DNA of 64,000 bases from Chitinophagales bacterium (GTDB taxonomy: Bacteria > Bacteroidota > Bacteroidia > Chitinophagales > Chitinophagaceae): NCBI GenBank assembly GCA_030832085.1, contig JAURJU010000030.1:20309-84308 (forward strand), in the 5' to 3' direction. A program made the position numbers and the translations under genes. The stretch's first letter is position 1. The number at the start of each line of letters is the position of its first letter. Shown here piece after piece: positions 7,355 through 38,831 of this stretch. The notes under the pieces are model-generated. The model had not been told where the DNA came from. It worked only from the letters and a program-made list of their open reading frames with translations, and made no database searches.

Positions 7355-7899
7355 TGCAACTCTCCCAATGTTGACAAAGCATAAAACAATGCAGTAACAT
7401 GCATGCTTTGCAAGATCTCATTGTTTTTCAGCATAGATTTCACTTCATCAATGGTCAGCAGGTGAATTTCAATTTCCTCGTTTGCGTCCAGTTGTTGATT
7501 GCCTGTTTTTTCTCCACCGGTGGCCAGGTAAAAATGCATCCAGTTGTTGTGGGTTGAAGGGTTTGCTGATGTTTTTCCAAGATATTCAATTGCCTTGAAT
7601 TCATAGCCGGTCTCTTCCCTCAGTTCCCTTGCTATGGCTGTTTTCGGGTCTTTGTCATCGTCATCAATACAGCCTCCAGGTATTTCCATAAGGGTCATGC
7701 CACTGGCATGCCTGTACTGCCTTTCGAAAATAAATTTGCCATCATGGGTTATTGCTACTGCAGTTACCCAATCGGGAAATTCGTAGACATAATAAGGATC
7801 AACAATTTTTCCGTCTTTGCGGGAACAGGTATCCTTCCTCACCGTAAACCAAAGGTCCTTGAAAAGATAGTCAGACTTGATCAGCTTCCACTCCATCAC
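7348..7899 (-). CDS. NUDIX hydrolase (ADP-ribose pyrophosphatase-like)
   Basis: Nudix box EIPGGCID...AIARELREETGY; QYRHA; LDANEEIEI. Confidence 0.88.
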   Translation of the reverse strand: MMEWKLIKSDYLFKDLWFTVRKDTCSRKDGKIVDPYYVYEFPDWVTAVAITHDGKFIFERQYRHASGMTLMEIPGGCIDDDDKDPKTAIARELREETGYEFKAIEYLGKTSANPSTHNNWMHFYLATGGEKTGNQQLDANEEIEIHLLTIDEVKSMLKNNEILQSMHVTALFYALSTLGELHY

Positions 7900-8789
7900 C
7901 CATTTTTTTTGGCCCTGATCAATGCTCTTCTGATATAAGGGGCTTTCAATTTCTTGTCATAATAAAATATCATGTACCCCTTTGATGGCTTCACTGCGTA
8001 GCCCGCCGACTGAAGCAAGTTTGTGAATTCTGCCTCGTCATCGTGCTGATGATATGTGCACAAAGCAATTTTGATGTTCGTCGCATTGCAAATGGTATCC
8101 TTAAAGCCTTGTAGCAATTTTCGCTCACCACCATCAACATCAATTTTCAGAAAGGTCAATTCCTTGTCATAAAAGAATTTGTCTCCTGAACAGTTTTTTT
8201 CATCATTCTTGTCTGAAACAAATTTGGGAACAATTTCAACCTTGTCCTTCCATGGCAAAAAAGTCATTTCCAGTGCTTCCTTCCATTCGGGATCAGATTC
8301 AAACAAATAAACTTTTTTGATTCTTTCAATCACTGAGAGTGAAAAGTTTCCTTCCGCAGCTCCAAAATCAGCCAAAACATCTTCCTGACCAAGGTCGAAA
8401 TCTGCTGACAAATAGCGGTGAGGACTTTCAGGGTCCTGTTCAAGGGATAAATCGTGAAAGGACTTTTGGATCCTGTTGGCCGACCACCTTCGTTTGAAGT
8501 AGAGCCGCTTTCCGTCCATCATCACATACTTCAATCCACAGGATGAATCCTCATGAACAGCAATAGAGGATGCATCATATTTTTCAGTGAAATCGTAAGG
8601 AAAAATTTGCACCCCCTTTCTCTTGATATAATCCATGACAGCCTTGCGCTCAGGATCGTTCGAACAATCGTTGATCCTTGAATGAAAATCGGGAATACGT
8701 TTGGCCAAAGATGATAACAACAATCTTGTTCTAATCGGCTTGGGCACAAGCATCCTGTAAAGTTGGAACATTAGCGACATCTTCGGCAT
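7896..8789 (-). CDS. FkbM-like SAM-dependent methyltransferase
   Basis: LADFGAAEGNF (motif I), LFES, FLKIDVDGGE, IALCTYH. Confidence 0.7.
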   Translation of the reverse strand: MPKMSLMFQLYRMLVPKPIRTRLLLSSLAKRIPDFHSRINDCSNDPERKAVMDYIKRKGVQIFPYDFTEKYDASSIAVHEDSSCGLKYVMMDGKRLYFKRRWSANRIQKSFHDLSLEQDPESPHRYLSADFDLGQEDVLADFGAAEGNFSLSVIERIKKVYLFESDPEWKEALEMTFLPWKDKVEIVPKFVSDKNDEKNCSGDKFFYDKELTFLKIDVDGGERKLLQGFKDTICNATNIKIALCTYHQHDDEAEFTNLLQSAGYAVKPSKGYMIFYYDKKLKAPYIRRALIRAKKNG

Positions 8790-8842
8790 TTAATGAAATG
8801 AGCCCAAATGTATTGAAACAAGTTCAACATTTAACATGTTCA

Positions 8843-10417
8843 TCACATCTTGACAACAGACTTCACCTGCTGCATGACCTGATTCTGGAACCGGATATAG
8901 TAAAGTCCGGCAGGAAGATGCTCCCCGTCAAAATCAATCCTGAAAGTGCCAGGATCAAACTCGCGATCGATCAAAATCTTGACCAGCCGCCCGGAAGCGT
9001 CCATGACCTGGATCATGATATGGCCTCCTGCAGATTTGAACTGAATGGTGATTTTCTTGTGGAATGGATTGGGATAGAGCACAATCAACTGATCAGGATT
9101 TCCTACGGGCTTCATGATGGAACAGGTTCCCAGCTTGGTCAAAGGAAGTTCCTGGAAGTTTTTCAACATCACATTGTTGAGCATTGTTGAATCCACACAC
9201 AGCCAATTTGACAGAATGCTTGCATACACACTCCTGAAATCATATTGATAAGGCACATTGTCGCCAACTGTTGCATTGGCTGGCAAGATGGGGGTAGTTC
9301 CGGATACCCCTGCCTGTACTCTTGCCCCAAATACAAATAGCGGTGCTGCTGCACCATGGTCAGTTCCACTTGAACCATTGCTGAGAATGCGCCTGCCAAA
9401 CTCAGAATAGGTCATGCCAATCACCCTATCTTCAACACCCTGGAATTTCAAATCATCCATGAAAGCCTTGATGGCATTGCTTACATTTCCCAACAATGTG
9501 GCATGGTATCCAATTGAAGTATCCCCGGCAACCGTTTGATTGGAATGGGTATCAAAACCACCATAATTGACCATGTAAATTTTCGTCTTCAAACCGCCCT
9601 TGATCAGCCTTGAAACAATCTTGAGCTGATCAGCCAAAGAGTTGCCTGTTGGATAAGGCGATTGGGTCGTCACTTTTGAATTGGCCAATTTGATGACATC
9701 CCCAAACTTCTGTGTTTGTTTGGCCATCTCCCTGACAAAGGTCAGTTCCTTTCCAGCATAGGTATTGGGAGCCGTATCAATCTGGTTGTTGACAAAGCTG
9801 TAGAATGAACTTGGGTTGGAAATGCTCATTCCCATTGGCTGAGCAGGACCCTGAAGCGTCAGTGAAGTTACCGAACCAATCTGAATGGCAAGCGGATCGG
9901 TCATGTTGCTGTTGGGATAACCAATGGGAAATCCAGGGTACATTTCATCAAGGAAACGCCCCAGCCAACCTGTGTTCAACACCTGTTTGCTATCGGATGC
10001 ACTCATCCAAATATCAGTAGCCCTGAAATGGGAAAAATTGGGTTGTGCATATCCCACAGACTGCACAACATGCAACTTGCCGTCATTGTACAGCTGCTGC
10101 AATCCTGTCATTGCGGGATGTAAACCTACATTTTCAATTCCGTTCAACCGCAATACCTTGGATTCTTCAATAAAGATGTTTTTCCTTGCATTGGCATATT
10201 TTCCAAACTGATCCAACGGAATCACGGTGTTCAAACCATCATTACCGCCATTCAATTGAATGACAACAAATACCCTGTCATTGTCTCCTCCCGGCAACAG
10301 CAAGTTGTTCAGGAATGTATGGCCGGATTCAAATGCCTTGAAACCCATCCCGTTGACAAAGGATGGCACCATTACACCTGCAGGCAGGTATCCATTTAAG
10401 AATTTTCTTCTGTTCAT
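8843..10417 (-). CDS. DUF1501 family protein with Tat-like N-terminus and C-terminal T9SS type A sorting domain
   Basis: MNRRKFL; QLNGGNDGLNT, PNFSHFRA, GGFDTH, SEFGRR, GTDHG; C-terminal LYPNPF...MDASGRLV...LPAGLYYIRF...VVKM. Confidence 0.85.
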   Translation of the reverse strand: MNRRKFLNGYLPAGVMVPSFVNGMGFKAFESGHTFLNNLLLPGGDNDRVFVVIQLNGGNDGLNTVIPLDQFGKYANARKNIFIEESKVLRLNGIENVGLHPAMTGLQQLYNDGKLHVVQSVGYAQPNFSHFRATDIWMSASDSKQVLNTGWLGRFLDEMYPGFPIGYPNSNMTDPLAIQIGSVTSLTLQGPAQPMGMSISNPSSFYSFVNNQIDTAPNTYAGKELTFVREMAKQTQKFGDVIKLANSKVTTQSPYPTGNSLADQLKIVSRLIKGGLKTKIYMVNYGGFDTHSNQTVAGDTSIGYHATLLGNVSNAIKAFMDDLKFQGVEDRVIGMTYSEFGRRILSNGSSGTDHGAAAPLFVFGARVQAGVSGTTPILPANATVGDNVPYQYDFRSVYASILSNWLCVDSTMLNNVMLKNFQELPLTKLGTCSIMKPVGNPDQLIVLYPNPFHKKITIQFKSAGGHIMIQVMDASGRLVKILIDREFDPGTFRIDFDGEHLPAGLYYIRFQNQVMQQVKSVVKM

Positions 10418-10427
10418 GTTGTTCGGA

Positions 10428-12044
10428 TTAACACAGTTGATACTCTGGGAGATCAACCATGTATTTGATCAAATTGGTGATGGCAGTTGTAACATATTTT
10501 GTGTTGGCTGCATTGGTTGGTGTGGAAATAAACAGGTCCCACGCAGCAGCCCAATACAGGTCATCCGACTGACCTGACAACAGGATATCCTTTTTCAATT
10601 GGGCCTTGTGTGAAGCTGAAATCGGAATACCCAAAATATGGGCGGACAAGTCGTCAATCAATTTGTTGGGATCATTGGGTGCTGCCATCTTTTTCACATA
10701 TGCCAATCCATCAACCACCACCTTGAATCCACTTATAGTGTAACCACTGGTGACCAGTGCATCCAGGTATTGGATTCTCTTGGGCAAGGTGTCCGTATTG
10801 ATCCAATATTCATAATACCCTGGTTCCTGGTAATATGCCTTCCATCCGCTGACATCAGGAGGATCCCCAAGGTTTTGCTGGAGATTCGTAAAATAACTGA
10901 GCATTTGGTTCCAAAGGCCATAATTGGTGGCGTACATGTCCTCAGTTGGAAACTTCACGTCAAACTCCCGCAACAAGCCAATCATCATTGTAACCGGGCT
11001 TTTGATCTGACAGCCCCTGTTCATCGCATCAAAAAAATGATCGCTTCCCAGCAAGGCATTCAAAACAGGCTTGACATCAAAATTGTTATCCCGCATGATT
11101 TTGGCCAGTGGAACAATGATGTTGGATTCCACTTCTGGAGTAATCTTGTAATAGACAAACCAGATGTATAACTTTCTGCAAAGAAATAGCGCTGCCTCGC
11201 TATTGGCAAACAGCATGTTTATAAATTCATCCAATTCGATATCACCGCCTGTTGCACCTGTTTTGCCTGCAATCACTTTGTTGCCATAAAAAGCAGAAAA
11301 TTGCTTGTTGGTAACATCGTGTCGAGTTGCATCAAAATAGGACTCCATCTTGTTCGAATCGTTTCTCCATCCGGTCAGCAATTTTGCAGCGGCCTTTACA
11401 TCGGCCTCTGAAAAATCGGCACCCACACCTTTCCCGATAACAAACAGTTCTTGAATTTCACGAGCATAGTTCTCGTCAGGAGCAAATTTATTGTTGTTCT
11501 GTCCATTGAGGTAGACCAACATGGAAGGATCAACTGATATGGCCCTGACCAAAGATTTGATGTTGCCAAGTGCATTGGCCCTTATGAGCGCATGGTGCTT
11601 ATAAACAAATTGGGCATTGCCAATGTCATTTGTTTCTGTAGAGAAATGGTTGTGCCAAAAAATGCACATGTTTTCTCGAATTGTACGGTCCTGGTTGATC
11701 AGGTTTCCTACCCACCATTTCTTGAAAGATGCCCTTCGGTATGAAGCTATTGTTCCATCGTTGTTGGGATCGTTCACCCAGGTTTCTCCCGGACCAATCA
11801 AAGTATCTGGCATCGCGGCATTGCCAACAGCATATTCTTTTACGGGAGGGGCTGGCAGCGGAAGACTGGTGTCCAAGATCTGGTCAATGGCCTTTGCCCT
11901 GCCCAAGCCTGCAAAGTAGCTGATGTCATCTTTTTTTGCACCAAACATGGTTCGGCGCAAAAGATGCTTGACCACTTCATTGTCCCATGGCCCGGTGTAA
12001 GGATTCAGGCTCGGAGGTGCTTGAAATTTCCTTTCTGTAGACAT
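10428..12044 (-). CDS. DUF1800 family protein
   Basis: HLLRRTMFG, FWHNHFS, PDENYAREIQELF, AAKLLTGW, QIKSP, PPDVSGWKAY. Directly upstream of DUF1501, the usual pairing. Confidence 0.85.
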   Translation of the reverse strand: MSTERKFQAPPSLNPYTGPWDNEVVKHLLRRTMFGAKKDDISYFAGLGRAKAIDQILDTSLPLPAPPVKEYAVGNAAMPDTLIGPGETWVNDPNNDGTIASYRRASFKKWWVGNLINQDRTIRENMCIFWHNHFSTETNDIGNAQFVYKHHALIRANALGNIKSLVRAISVDPSMLVYLNGQNNNKFAPDENYAREIQELFVIGKGVGADFSEADVKAAAKLLTGWRNDSNKMESYFDATRHDVTNKQFSAFYGNKVIAGKTGATGGDIELDEFINMLFANSEAALFLCRKLYIWFVYYKITPEVESNIIVPLAKIMRDNNFDVKPVLNALLGSDHFFDAMNRGCQIKSPVTMMIGLLREFDVKFPTEDMYATNYGLWNQMLSYFTNLQQNLGDPPDVSGWKAYYQEPGYYEYWINTDTLPKRIQYLDALVTSGYTISGFKVVVDGLAYVKKMAAPNDPNKLIDDLSAHILGIPISASHKAQLKKDILLSGQSDDLYWAAAWDLFISTPTNAANTKYVTTAITNLIKYMVDLPEYQLC

Positions 12045-12065
12045 TATATTGTTTGTATTCGGTAT

Positions 12066-13103
12066 CTAGTTGTACCACACAAGGTCCACATCACTTCCAT
12101 TTTCCGCTGCTCCCAATGCTGAAACAGTTGCATTGCTCATCCTAAGAGCAAGGCCCTCACTCTCCTTCCCTGGAGGCACTGCCCCCAGGACTTTTGCAAA
12201 AATTTCTTTCCTGGTTGACTTTATGATCAACTTTACGACAGTACCAGGAACCACATTGTTCATCAAAACGTAGTATTTTCCATCTTTCCAGCCACTGGTA
12301 CTCTTAAAAACTCCATATGCGGAATTTTCCAGCTTTTGTTGCTGTCCTTCTTTGGATTGCTGGTCAAACAAGGAAGCAAAATATCCCTTGGGATGCATTC
12401 CCTCAGCAGGTTGTTGCGTTTGCGGCCTTGTTTTGGTCTCCGTCGAAACAACTGACTGCTGTTCCTCTACCACCTTGACTGGTGCAGCAGAAGGTTTGAG
12501 AACGGGTATATCGGCTGCTGCAACCGTCACTGCTGGAGTTGCAGGCTTTGATTGCTTGGGTTTTTCTGTATCCGCAAACTCCTTTTGTGAATTGTTTGTG
12601 GCAACGGCTATTGAAGCAACTGCTTTTTCGTTTGGCTGAACGGGTATTGCTGTTGCTACAGGTGATTTGGGCAACAGGAATCCAACAGTCAACGAAGCAC
12701 CAACATTGATCTGATCGGTTTTGAGGCCATTCCATTTTTTCAACAGTTCCTTGTCTACACGATAAAGGTTTGAAACTTTGAGCAAACCTTCTTTTTGCTG
12801 CACCACATGAATCACCCGGGCCCCTGCATTGGGCACATTGGCCACTTGTGAGAAATTTTCATCTTTCAGTGGAATCTTCAACACCTGACCTATTCCCAAG
12901 CCTTTGTCCATGGACAGCTGATTAAAAGCAGCTATATCCTTTGGGCTGATAAAATAAATTCTTCCCACACTGTACCAGTTTTCCTTGGGGGCAACCTTGT
13001 GGTCCACATAAAGTTGATTGTCAGACTGGTGAACAATCAGTTTTTGTTGCGCATGGCTGTTTGTTATAAGAAATGCTAAAAATGCGATGATGACTGGTTT
13101 CAT
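12066..13103 (-). CDS. Secreted LysM-domain protein with C-terminal RlpA/DPBB-like domain
   Basis: Signal peptide, two LysM repeats (HKVAPKENWYSVGR...LGIGQVLKIP; HVVQQKEGLLKVS...INVGASL), Ala/Pro linker, C-terminal PGTVVK...FAKVLG...LRMSNAT..ALG. Confidence 0.75.
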   Translation of the reverse strand: MKPVIIAFLAFLITNSHAQQKLIVHQSDNQLYVDHKVAPKENWYSVGRIYFISPKDIAAFNQLSMDKGLGIGQVLKIPLKDENFSQVANVPNAGARVIHVVQQKEGLLKVSNLYRVDKELLKKWNGLKTDQINVGASLTVGFLLPKSPVATAIPVQPNEKAVASIAVATNNSQKEFADTEKPKQSKPATPAVTVAAADIPVLKPSAAPVKVVEEQQSVVSTETKTRPQTQQPAEGMHPKGYFASLFDQQSKEGQQQKLENSAYGVFKSTSGWKDGKYYVLMNNVVPGTVVKLIIKSTRKEIFAKVLGAVPPGKESEGLALRMSNATVSALGAAENGSDVDLVWYN

Positions 13104-13197
13104 GCCAATTGGTTACACTACAAATTAAAATTATATTTCCTAAAACTGCAAGCAGGACCTGTGGAAATTGAATGTAAACTGAAATTTTAACATTTGA

Positions 13198-14562
13198 TCA
13201 ATTGCGCATCATGATTCTCCATGACATGGGGTAATGGTTTTTAACCCTCCCCTGAACAATCTTTGCCCAACCCAAACCAATTGCGTTATAGGTGACCAAG
13301 CGCCAACCATTGCCTAGCCCATCAACCTCAACATTGTCTCTTCTTAAAAACGAAATGGCGTCTTGCATGTCAAGCACCAGGGTTGGAATGTTTTCAGAAA
13401 GAATAAAAGACATGGCAAGCTCGTGGTCTGGAACAAGATCAGTCCGGATTTCTGCGCCCAGTCTTAGGCCGGACTTTCTCATCCTCAATGCATCCTTTAG
13501 TTGAATCAATGATGAAATGTTTATTTCATCTACAGCAAAAAGCTCATTTTCCTTTTTAAAAAACTGCAAATTATTTGAGGGAATGATCCAATCTTGCAAT
13601 ACCATTGGCGCTTTGATCAATTCCAACTTGCCCAATCCAGCATTGTGCAGCCCTGTTGTCTCTCCGGTTTTTCTGAGCAGTGCACAAAAAAATCCTTCGC
13701 CAAGGAGCTTATCTGGATAAAAGCGGTATCCATTTGCCTTGCCAACACCAGAAACACTATGGACAATATTCCAATCTGCCGGTATATGGATGGAGACAGA
13801 CTCAAACATGCCGGACTGGAGGATATAATCCAAATTGTCCTCATTTTCTTCCTTCGAATAAGAACAGGTAGAATACAAGAGGTACCCGCCCTCTTTGACA
13901 GATTGCATTGCACTTGCAAGAATTCTTTTTTGCCTGGCGGCACAAAAGCTTACCAATCCTGGATTCCACTCGTCCATTGCGTCACTGTCTTTTCTGAACA
14001 ACCCACTTCCGCTGCAGGGGGCATCTACCAAAACCAGGTCAAAAAAACCAGCCAATTTTTCAAAGTCCACAGGATCGTTGTTCGAGACAAACACATGGTC
14101 AGCGCCCCACTTGATGACATTTTCCTGCAATACCGGGGTGCGTGTTTGTATGATTTCATTTGCCAGCACCATTCTGAACTGAGGCATTGATGACAAGAGG
14201 GTTGTCTTGCCACCAGGTGCGGCGCATAGATCCAGTGCCAATAAGCCTTCTGCATCCTTCATCAGATCCGAAATCGCATGATGAATGAACATGCTGGATG
14301 CTTCCTGCACATAATAGGCACCTGCATGAAAAAGCGGATCCAATGTGAATTTGGGACGGCTTTTAAGATAGTATGCATTTTCGCACCAAGGCACTGCATC
14401 GCTTAGAATTCCACCCGGAAAAATATCCAATGGGCTTGTCTTTTTTTTGGGATTGAGCCGAACAGAAACTGGGGAACCCTGTTGGTGGGCTGCAACCATT
14501 TCTTCCCTGAGAAATCCCGGACATCCTTCCAACGCCTGTAAAAATTCCTCCTTGAGTAACAT
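13198..14562 (-). CDS. RsmB/NOP (RsmF-like) RNA m5C methyltransferase
   Basis: YYVQEASSM, LDLCAAPGGKT, LVDAPCSGSG, YSTCS, C-terminal PUA-like region (KNHYP..WR). Confidence 0.88.
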   Translation of the reverse strand: MLLKEEFLQALEGCPGFLREEMVAAHQQGSPVSVRLNPKKKTSPLDIFPGGILSDAVPWCENAYYLKSRPKFTLDPLFHAGAYYVQEASSMFIHHAISDLMKDAEGLLALDLCAAPGGKTTLLSSMPQFRMVLANEIIQTRTPVLQENVIKWGADHVFVSNNDPVDFEKLAGFFDLVLVDAPCSGSGLFRKDSDAMDEWNPGLVSFCAARQKRILASAMQSVKEGGYLLYSTCSYSKEENEDNLDYILQSGMFESVSIHIPADWNIVHSVSGVGKANGYRFYPDKLLGEGFFCALLRKTGETTGLHNAGLGKLELIKAPMVLQDWIIPSNNLQFFKKENELFAVDEINISSLIQLKDALRMRKSGLRLGAEIRTDLVPDHELAMSFILSENIPTLVLDMQDAISFLRRDNVEVDGLGNGWRLVTYNAIGLGWAKIVQGRVKNHYPMSWRIMMRN

Positions 14563-37544: not shown

Positions 37545-38831
37545 TTATGCTCCGGCTATCCTCCTGACTGCTTCCGCAAGCTTGTCAAGGTCCTTGAGCG
37601 ATGTGTAGACATTGGGGGTTACCCTTACCCCATGGATGTTTTCCCAGTTGATGGCCACCGTATGAATCTTGTATTTGGAAAAGAGCTCCCCTGCAACTTC
37701 CTCAGGTTTTTTCCCTTCGATGGCAATACTGGCGATGGCACAAGAAAGATGCTTGGATTTGGGCTGATTGAAGGATACCCGCGAGAGGTCTTTGACCTGG
37801 CTCACCCAATGGTCCTTGAGTTGACGCAACCTTGCCTCTTTGCGCTTGCTTCCGATCACATCATGAAAATCCACCGCCGCGCCGATGGCCATTTCGGAAG
37901 CAAATGATCGGGTTCCCAGGGATTCAAACTTGCGAATATCCTTCCCATCGGGTTCGTTGTTGGAAAGCAGGGCCCAGACATGCTTGATTTTTTCCTTCCT
38001 GATATAGAGCATTCCGCTCCCAAATGGCGCACTCAACCATTTGTGCAGCGATGTTGCAAAGTAATCGCATCCAAGATCAGGAATCTTGAAATCAAAATGA
38101 GCAAAGCTGTGTGCCCCGTCAGCAATCACCTCAATTCCCATCGCATGTGCGGCATCCGCTACTTTTTTTACCGGCATGATCTGGCCACACCAATTGATCA
38201 GATGGGTGACCATTACCACTTTTGTGCGCGGCGTAAAAGCAGCAATGTACTGCGCGGCCAAAACCTCTTCATTTTCCTCGGGTAGCTTGAGGTCTATCCA
38301 AATCAGCTTTATGCCATCCCTTTTCTCTCTTTGCTTCCACGCGTTGATCATGTTTGGATAATCCTGCCTTGTCAACACAACTTCATCGCCGGGCTTGAGG
38401 TTAAGGCCAAATATTACCGTATTGAGCCCCTCAGTTGCATTGCGGTTGATGGCAATTTCTTCCTTGTCACAACCTGCAAGAAGGGATAGCTTTTCACGCA
38501 AGGGCTCTCTGCCCTGATCCAGGATCTGCCACATGTAATAAGAGGGCGCTTCATTGGCATACTGGTAATAGCGGATATGTGCGTCTTGAACAACTTTGGG
38601 TTGTGGAGCAACACCACCATTGTTCAAATTCATGATATTGGGACTTACCGTGTACGCTTCCCGTACCCATCCCCAAAAATCCTCATCCCCCAGGGCAATG
38701 CCCGATTGATTTGCATGTGTCGTTTTTCTGTAAGCATTTGCCGCTTCAGCAAATACTGGATCAACGGCTGAAATGAAAGGCAACACGGCGGCAGACCTTA
38801 AAAAATTTCTGCGGGAAGAGGGATATGGCAT
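37545..38831 (-). CDS. Tat-exported class V PLP enzyme (isopenicillin N epimerase-like)
   Basis: SSRRNFLRSA Tat motif, LNNGG, RNATE, DGAH, PLP Lys in ATSLHKW, GVRVTP. Confidence 0.82.
   Translation of the reverse strand: MPYPSSRRNFLRSAAVLPFISAVDPVFAEAANAYRKTTHANQSGIALGDEDFWGWVREAYTVSPNIMNLNNGGVAPQPKVVQDAHIRYYQYANEAPSYYMWQILDQGREPLREKLSLLAGCDKEEIAINRNATEGLNTVIFGLNLKPGDEVVLTRQDYPNMINAWKQREKRDGIKLIWIDLKLPEENEEVLAAQYIAAFTPRTKVVMVTHLINWCGQIMPVKKVADAAHAMGIEVIADGAHSFAHFDFKIPDLGCDYFATSLHKWLSAPFGSGMLYIRKEKIKHVWALLSNNEPDGKDIRKFESLGTRSFASEMAIGAAVDFHDVIGSKRKEARLRQLKDHWVSQVKDLSRVSFNQPKSKHLSCAIASIAIEGKKPEEVAGELFSKYKIHTVAINWENIHGVRVTPNVYTSLKDLDKLAEAVRRIAGA

Follow-up and report, generated by a model that had tools for sequence, protein, structure and literature searches.

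A DUF1800-DUF1501 gene pair of Bacteroidota with a predicted Tat-to-type IX secretion route

A 64,000-nucleotide stretch of a freshwater Chitinophagaceae genome (Chitinophagales bacterium, assembly GCA_030832085.1, contig JAURJU010000030.1, positions 20,309 to 84,308; hereafter the window) carries a two-gene unit on its minus strand, with a DUF1800 gene upstream and a DUF1501 gene downstream (Table 1). The DUF1501 protein combines a predicted twin-arginine translocation (Tat) signal at its N-terminus with a type IX secretion system (T9SS) type A C-terminal sorting domain (CTD) at its C-terminus, and DUF1800 has no signal peptide. The reading that is favoured here, by a modest degree, is that DUF1501 would be exported by Tat and then by the T9SS, with DUF1800 riding across at least the inner membrane. 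The parts of this reading differ in strength. Tat followed by T9SS is well supported for DUF1501 and appears likely from the signals and their conservation; it is plausible that DUF1800 is exported with it over the inner membrane, the comparisons leaning slightly this way; and passage of a DUF1501-DUF1800 complex across the outer membrane seems doubtful.

In the proposed route, the two genes would form a self-contained operon for an alkaline-phosphatase-superfamily hydrolase and an all-alpha partner. DUF1501 would acquire its fold, and probably a metal centre, in the cytoplasm, and its twin-arginine signal would take it out through TatABC. The type A CTD would then pass it to the T9SS (PorV/SprA), which would deliver it to the surface of the cell or into the medium. 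DUF1800 would most likely bind DUF1501 in the cytoplasm and cross the inner membrane as its passenger, by Tat hitchhiking.

A twin-arginine signal and a T9SS sorting domain on one protein

The DUF1501 N-terminus, N-R-R-K-F-L-N after the initiator methionine, fits the Tat consensus (S/T)-R-R-x-F-L-K. The first-pass annotation, made from the DNA alone, had pointed to this MNRRKFL start, and its conservation agrees: RRxF[LI] is nearly invariant in relatives, being found at residues 2-8 in 101 of the 120 best (58-88% identity), with most of the remainder being N-terminally truncated gene calls. Aligned on the motif, 63 phylum-wide DUF1501 sequences give the consensus [K/S/N]-R(60)-R(63)-x-F(60)-[L/I](59)-[K/Q/R]. 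The predicted signal consists of a twin-arginine n-region, a weakly hydrophobic h-region with Pro and Gly, and a c-region with the basic residue K27, a place also held by K or R in relatives. A basic residue in the c-region is a known feature for avoidance of the general secretory (Sec) pathway. A signal peptidase might cut at V-N-G (residues 21-23).

The weakness of the h-region had been raised as a possible objection to a functional Tat signal. This worry is not sustained, as the h-region hydrophobicity of 1.43 falls in the range of the 35 other twin-arginine (RR) signals of the genome (1.62 +/- 0.28). The Sec signals of the other CTD proteins in the genome are far more hydrophobic (2.57). 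TatC is encoded (200.5 bits), and about 38 N-termini with RRxF[LIV] indicate a Tat-rich proteome for a genome of 2.9 Mb. RR signals are also found on the five other DUF1501 paralogues of the genome and on DUF1501 subfamilies without a CTD. Therefore, Tat dependence looks like a trait of the DUF1501 family.

Two further N-termini were noted. Another open reading frame (ORF) of the window (37545-38831, minus strand) has a typical RR signal, MPYPSSRRNFLRSAAVLPFISAVDPVFAEA. One DUF1501 subfamily (L126, L128, L131, L132, L134, L137, L138, L145, L153, L163, L188 and L198) carries a His-rich extension of 20-35 residues ahead of the RR, e.g. MCDHSPKTRKGARLQDGAAHSEDHSRWSRRQFL. The extension might serve as an n-region that binds metal, in keeping with metal loading in the cytoplasm.

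The type A CTD that was proposed for the C-terminus is confirmed by PF18962 and by TIGR04183, the latter a check suggested with the original annotation, both with scores above their cut-offs, and by fold matches to solved CTDs. The profile matches reach residues 447-521/522 of 524, that is, the extreme C-terminus, and the domain is the third best of 10 PF18962 matches in the genome. It is modelled with a predicted local distance difference test score (pLDDT) of 85-92, and Foldseek pairs it with the CTD of mirolase (8qb1_A, TMt 0.61) and with the NucA CTD bound in a T9SS complex (8glk_D, TMt 0.64). Nearly all of the 120 best DUF1501 relatives carry PF07394 plus PF18962. Among the 10 CTD matches of the genome, an RR N-terminus is found on DUF1501 only, and the six other CTD proteins with an unambiguous start have strongly hydrophobic, Sec-type N-termini. 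SprA (2480 bits) and PorV (370 bits; cut at the contig start, C103:2-925) are encoded in the genome.

Distribution, architectures and phylogeny of the pair

An even sample of 301 Bacteroidota genomes yields DUF1800 in 126, from 81 of 144 genera, in agreement with the initial statement that the pair is widespread. Loci were read from 110 phylum-wide occurrences and 80 close relatives. A DUF1501 gene comes next after DUF1800 in 107 of the 110 phylum-wide loci, and 99 of these 107 partners are Tat-like according to a rule-based classifier; the exceptions are mostly start-site problems or long His-rich n-regions. None of the 190 DUF1800 frames carries a CTD.

Three architectures are distinguished. 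In one, a DUF1800 of about 660 amino acids (aa) has its own Sec-type signal, and the accompanying Tat-DUF1501, about 420 aa long, lacks a CTD. In another, a DUF1800 of 460-500 aa without a signal accompanies a Tat-DUF1501 of about 400 aa, again without a CTD. The type found in the window, a signal-less DUF1800 with a CTD-bearing Tat-DUF1501, accounts for 73 of the 107 pairs, 56 of which are assigned by a CTD hidden Markov model (HMM) built for this analysis and 17 by long divergent tails. When divergent tails were tested with PF18962, 8 of 10 matched.

In a FastTree phylogeny of DUF1800, from which presequence columns were removed, a single clade of 85 rows (Shimodaira-Hasegawa-like support 96) unites the sequences whose DUF1501 partner bears a CTD. 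The DUF1800s with a Sec signal form a separate clade of 10 rows (support 100), each beside a Tat-DUF1501. Therefore, at least one DUF1800 subfamily has its site of action outside the cytoplasm. Two DUF1800 sequences nested in the CTD clade, L175 and L173, have RR followed by a hydrophobic stretch, clear in L175 and borderline in L173, and their DUF1501 partners are 419-426 aa long without a CTD. T9SS targeting seems to have been lost secondarily here.

DUF1800 and its twin-arginine motif without a hydrophobic core

The absence of a signal peptide from DUF1800, as initially annotated, is borne out in two ways. Over 120 relatives (58-87% identity), the maximum 12-residue Kyte-Doolittle mean of the first 50 residues averages 0.57, and the TAG of the upstream LysM gene (12066-12068) lies in the same frame as the DUF1800 ATG. 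A longer N-terminus is therefore impossible, and a hidden signal, considered as an alternative, is excluded by this stop codon right upstream. In the AlphaFold model (pLDDT 88.7, predicted template modelling score 0.89) the protein is all-alpha, and residues from about 10 onward are ordered and part of the fold. A Foldseek search of the model against the Protein Data Bank (PDB) gave no fold match (best E 0.65), and PDB sequence searches with single sequences and profiles gave none for DUF1800 or for DUF1501. DUF1800 may thus be an unsolved fold, as far as the model goes. Homology to the PSCyt/DUF1549/DUF1553 partners of other DUF1501 paralogues was considered and rejected (hhalign probability 0.5%).

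Many DUF1800 proteins of the CTD clade, about a third, begin with MDRRxFL, which is followed by polar or charged residues and not by a hydrophobic core (e.g. MDRRDFLTAKRSKRDK, MNRRSFLTTSWRKPDR and MDRRAFLELAAHPQ). Among the 110 phylum-wide loci, 26 have such an RR-only N-terminus, and so do 10 of 79 close relatives; examples are L168, L146, L152, L136, L196, L047 and L068, and P0241, P0257 and P0269. In an independent sample, the best 150 representatives from a library of 1.84 billion proteins (34-52% identity to the window DUF1800), 42 of the 125 classifiable representatives are RR-only, and further members have RK variants. The background rate is 8 of 1363 ORFs of at least 300 aa in the genome of the window.

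The RR-only motif occurs here and there across the CTD clade of the tree, a pattern that takes at least 12 changes. This scatter fits an ancestral Tat signal whose hydrophobic part would have been lost, the motif being kept in many lineages. The motif may accordingly be read either as a relic of a lost Tat signal or as a functional "half signal". The DUF1800 of the window (MSTERKFQ...) does not have it, and its nearest RR-only relatives are in the same 10-row subclade (support 98). The ERKF of this N-terminus may be a decayed remnant of RRxF. Taken together, the Sec-signal homologues and the RR remnants would favour an exported DUF1800 over a cytoplasmic chaperone.

The DUF1501 catalytic domain and its paralogues

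The DUF1501 of the window is a divergent member of PF07394, scoring 69.6 bits where the five paralogues of the genome score 244-530 bits. The motifs GGNDG, FDTH, SEFGR and DHG, singled out by the first reading as candidate ligands, are indeed invariant in 61 aligned relatives. The invariant candidate active-site residues are D60 (GGNDG), S129-H130 (SHF), D289/H291 (FDTH), E339 (SEFGR) and D353-H354 (TDHG), and by likeness to the alkaline-phosphatase superfamily they are plausible metal ligands plus a serine nucleophile. The suggested membership of the alkaline-phosphatase/sulfatase superfamily is supported by Foldseek, which relates the core to LtaS, S1 sulfatases, YejM/PbgA and phosphonate monoester hydrolase (E 1e-6 to 1e-4, probability ~1). 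Hydrolase chemistry and metal dependence would be expected from this likeness.

The five paralogues lie elsewhere in the genome (C45:1575-6285, C79:41095-44890, C22:310450-315141, C107:51555-55807 and C79:20290-24252). All five have an RR signal and no CTD, and each adjoins a large protein with a hydrophobic N-terminal segment and a CxxCH near the N-terminus. These large partners look like Planctomycete-type, cytochrome-like PSCyt/DUF1549/DUF1553 proteins. In the Planctomycetes-Verrucomicrobia, DUF1501 is paired with PSCyt/DUF1549/DUF1553 proteins.

Relation to known export systems

T9SS substrates are described as bearing a Sec signal (PMC9127263, PMC9251779), and the T9SS itself as a transporter of folded proteins (PMC9251779). 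The T9GPred pipeline, based on 102 experimental cargo proteins, requires the absence of a Tat signal. These sources uphold the general premise of the first-pass annotation that T9SS cargo is Sec-dependent. No Tat-dependent T9SS cargo, and no function for DUF1501 or DUF1800, was found in the literature searched. A DUF1800-DUF1501 operon and the Tat motif on proteobacterial DUF1501 have been noted previously (PMC5122149). The pair in the window matches that operon in its two Pfam families and in their order, but the Bacteroidota clade adds a T9SS CTD to DUF1501. The route predicted here, from Tat to the T9SS, was not found described in the literature searched, and would be a variant of known two-step secretion.

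The closest mechanistic precedent appears to be PlcHR2 of Pseudomonas aeruginosa, a folded heterodimer of haemolytic phospholipase C and its partner PlcR2 that is exported by Tat and then by the Xcp type II secretion system (T2SS) (PMC3601568), of which the window pair would be the T9SS counterpart. In both cases a Tat-signal phosphoesterase-type enzyme (predicted in the case of DUF1501) is encoded in an operon with a partner, and, as proposed for the window pair, the complex would be moved over the outer membrane by a second system that handles folded cargo. However, the outer-membrane step would here be taken by the T9SS via a C-terminal sorting domain and not by the T2SS. The partners also differ, as that of the window is an all-alpha protein of 538 aa encoded by the upstream gene, whereas PlcR2 is a 17 kDa protein encoded by the downstream gene. 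PlcHR2 and DUF1501-DUF1800 have no sequence relationship.

Tat hitchhiker complexes are known from the Escherichia coli hydrogenase-2 HybO/HybC and from DmsAB, which bear redox cofactors and remain periplasmic or on the inner membrane. As in these complexes, the twin-arginine signal of the window pair is on one subunit and absent from the other, and the genes are adjacent. Unlike in HybO/HybC and DmsAB, the signal-bearing subunit also has an outer-membrane secretion tag. A further difference from the known hitchhikers is the twin-arginine motif without a hydrophobic core that many DUF1800 homologues keep, which was not found described in the literature searched. Compared with canonical type A cargo (gingipains, ChiA, mirolase, NucA), DUF1501 has the same kind of C-terminal beta-sandwich, matching PF18962/TIGR04183 and solved CTDs, but it has a twin-arginine signal where the described cargo has a Sec signal (PMC9127263, PMC9251779).

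Alternative explanations

Several observations weigh against the proposed route. The Tat HMMs PF10518 and TIGR01409 give no match on the window N-terminus at E up to 10. PF10518 also misses two clear controls, and is above its cut-off for one family member only; because it fails on clear controls, the miss carries little weight. The signal region is oddly conserved for a signal peptide (P12, P18, G23 and A28 at 90% or more) and could have another role, e.g. chaperone binding. The DUF1501 model is moderately confident (pLDDT 69.6) and poor over residues 126-232, and the Foldseek TM-scores for the core are low, about 0.3. Finally, neither NF033707 nor PF01364 detected PorU in this draft assembly; the PF01364 search matched in no control genome either and says nothing on PorU. 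As the start of a contig truncates PorV, and 12 of 13 relatives possess PorU, normally a neighbour of PorV, the missing PorU is likely an assembly gap.

The rival explanations differ in where they place DUF1800. It might cross the inner membrane by hitchhiking and go no further, or be periplasmic in some other way, in which case the pair would split in the periplasm and DUF1501 alone would enter the T9SS. The lack of a CTD on any DUF1800 speaks for such a split, as do the two architectures without a CTD, in which both proteins are presumably periplasmic; in addition, no T9SS cargo with a CTD-less passenger was found in the literature searched. However, the DUF1800 partners of CTD-bearing DUF1501 are a clade of their own that co-diverges with DUF1501, which is easier to explain if the pair stays together, and the PlcHR2 heterodimer passes both Tat and an outer-membrane secretion system. 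A separation of the pair in the periplasm is thus considered rather unlikely. The most far-reaching version of joint export is that the heterodimer, assembled and folded in the cytoplasm, crosses two successive folded-protein translocons on the lone Tat signal and the lone CTD of DUF1501, with the "half signal" of those relatives whose DUF1800 begins MDRRxFL docking the passenger on TatC beside the full signal of its partner. This would be a long shot; if true, Tat targeting would here be bipartite, and the T9SS would have its first known passenger.

Export of DUF1800 would not be needed if it were a cytoplasmic maturation factor or a signal-binding proofreading chaperone (like TorD/DmsD, or a sulfatase maturase), with DUF1501 exported alone. 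This would agree with the absence of a signal on DUF1800, with the tight coupling of the two genes, and with the unusually conserved signal region of DUF1501, a feature that is seen in chaperone-bound Tat signals. However, the whole Sec-signal clade and the few RR-plus-hydrophobic members imply that homologues of DUF1800 have a role beyond the cytoplasm, the RR-only N-termini suggest ancestors that were exported by Tat, and the 538 aa of DUF1800 far exceed the size of the proofreading chaperones known for Tat. A cytoplasmic DUF1800 is therefore regarded as improbable. The RR N-terminus could also be unused by Tat, DUF1501 being an ordinary Sec-dependent T9SS cargo with two arginines in its signal by chance and DUF1800 unrelated to export. 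The failure of the Tat HMMs is what this would predict, and all 102 experimentally known cargo proteins compiled by T9GPred carry Sec signals. However, the full RRxF[LI] consensus is kept phylum-wide and by all DUF1501 subfamilies, the hydrophobicity of the h-region lies well below that of the Sec signals in this genome, and the basic c-region residue (K27, or K/R in relatives) is a feature known to keep proteins from the Sec pathway; ordinary Sec export is accordingly the least probable of these explanations. Export of DUF1501 by Tat and then by the T9SS, with DUF1800 carried across at least the inner membrane, is retained as the preferred reading.

Gene calls and genomic context

The pair was first annotated as two adjacent minus-strand genes with a 10-nt gap, and gene calls and Pfam matches confirm this (Table 1). 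Spacing between the two genes is typically 2-13 nt in relatives, and phylum-wide a few pairs overlap, by 1-4 nt. A longer DUF1501 start (TTG at 10456) was considered and ruled out because the DUF1501 of relatives begins at the M-x-RR methionine, 2-13 nt past the DUF1800 stop.

Table 1. Features of the DUF1800-DUF1501 unit in window coordinates. Cut-offs are 26.1 bits for PF08811, 27 for PF07394, 27 for PF18962 and 23 for TIGR04183.
Feature	Position	Strand	Details
DUF1800 gene	10428..12044	-	538 aa; PF08811 298.1 bits, full model length
DUF1800 residues 1-26, MSTERKFQAPPSLNPYTGPWDNEVVK	11967..12044	-	ahead of conserved HLLRRTMFG motif; no h-region
Spacer, DUF1800 stop to DUF1501 start	10418..10427	-	10 nt
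DUF1501 gene	8843..10417	-	524 aa plus stop; ATG at 10417, stop at 8843
Predicted Tat signal of DUF1501, residues 1-30, MNRRKFLNGYLPAGVMVPSFVNGMGFKAFE	10328..10417	-	twin-arginine consensus and hydrophobicity
DUF1501 catalytic domain, residues 51-382	9272..10267	-	PF07394 69.6 bits; alkaline-phosphatase-superfamily fold
Type A T9SS CTD of DUF1501, residues 447-521	8855..9079	-	PF18962 38.8 bits; TIGR04183 27.1 bits

The neighbouring genes (LysM, FkbM, Nudix, RsmB-like and M28) are shared with the closest relatives only, and no flanking family recurs phylum-wide, except for an FtsE-like ATPase near the Sec-signal subfamily. Thus, as the neighbours are not conserved beyond close relatives, the DUF1800-DUF1501 pair is a self-contained module. 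In a freshwater metatranscriptome (run X7), compared over window positions 7800-13200, there are contig pieces at least 99% identical to DUF1501, to DUF1800 and to the upstream LysM gene, and none over the downstream 7800-8885, which includes an FkbM-like gene (7896-8789). These pieces may reflect DNA carry-over.

Implications

T9GPred, the one dedicated cargo predictor found in the literature searched, discards proteins with a Tat signal, and current cargo lists therefore miss the whole Tat-plus-CTD family. It is a large one: about 40% of the Bacteroidota genomes sampled have DUF1800, and Tat and CTD are combined in two thirds of the DUF1501 partners. The RR motif without a hydrophobic core that is found on many DUF1800s is a testable oddity for Tat recognition. 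That the pair forms a surface enzyme system, as the first-pass annotation supposed, is a prediction from these features. If the route is true, the T9SS would accept cargo that is folded in the cytoplasm and probably cofactor-loaded, and it might also carry a passenger subunit. A confirmed route would also open a first way into two large domains of unknown function; for one of the two, DUF1800, the fold is predicted with confidence and has no solved relative.

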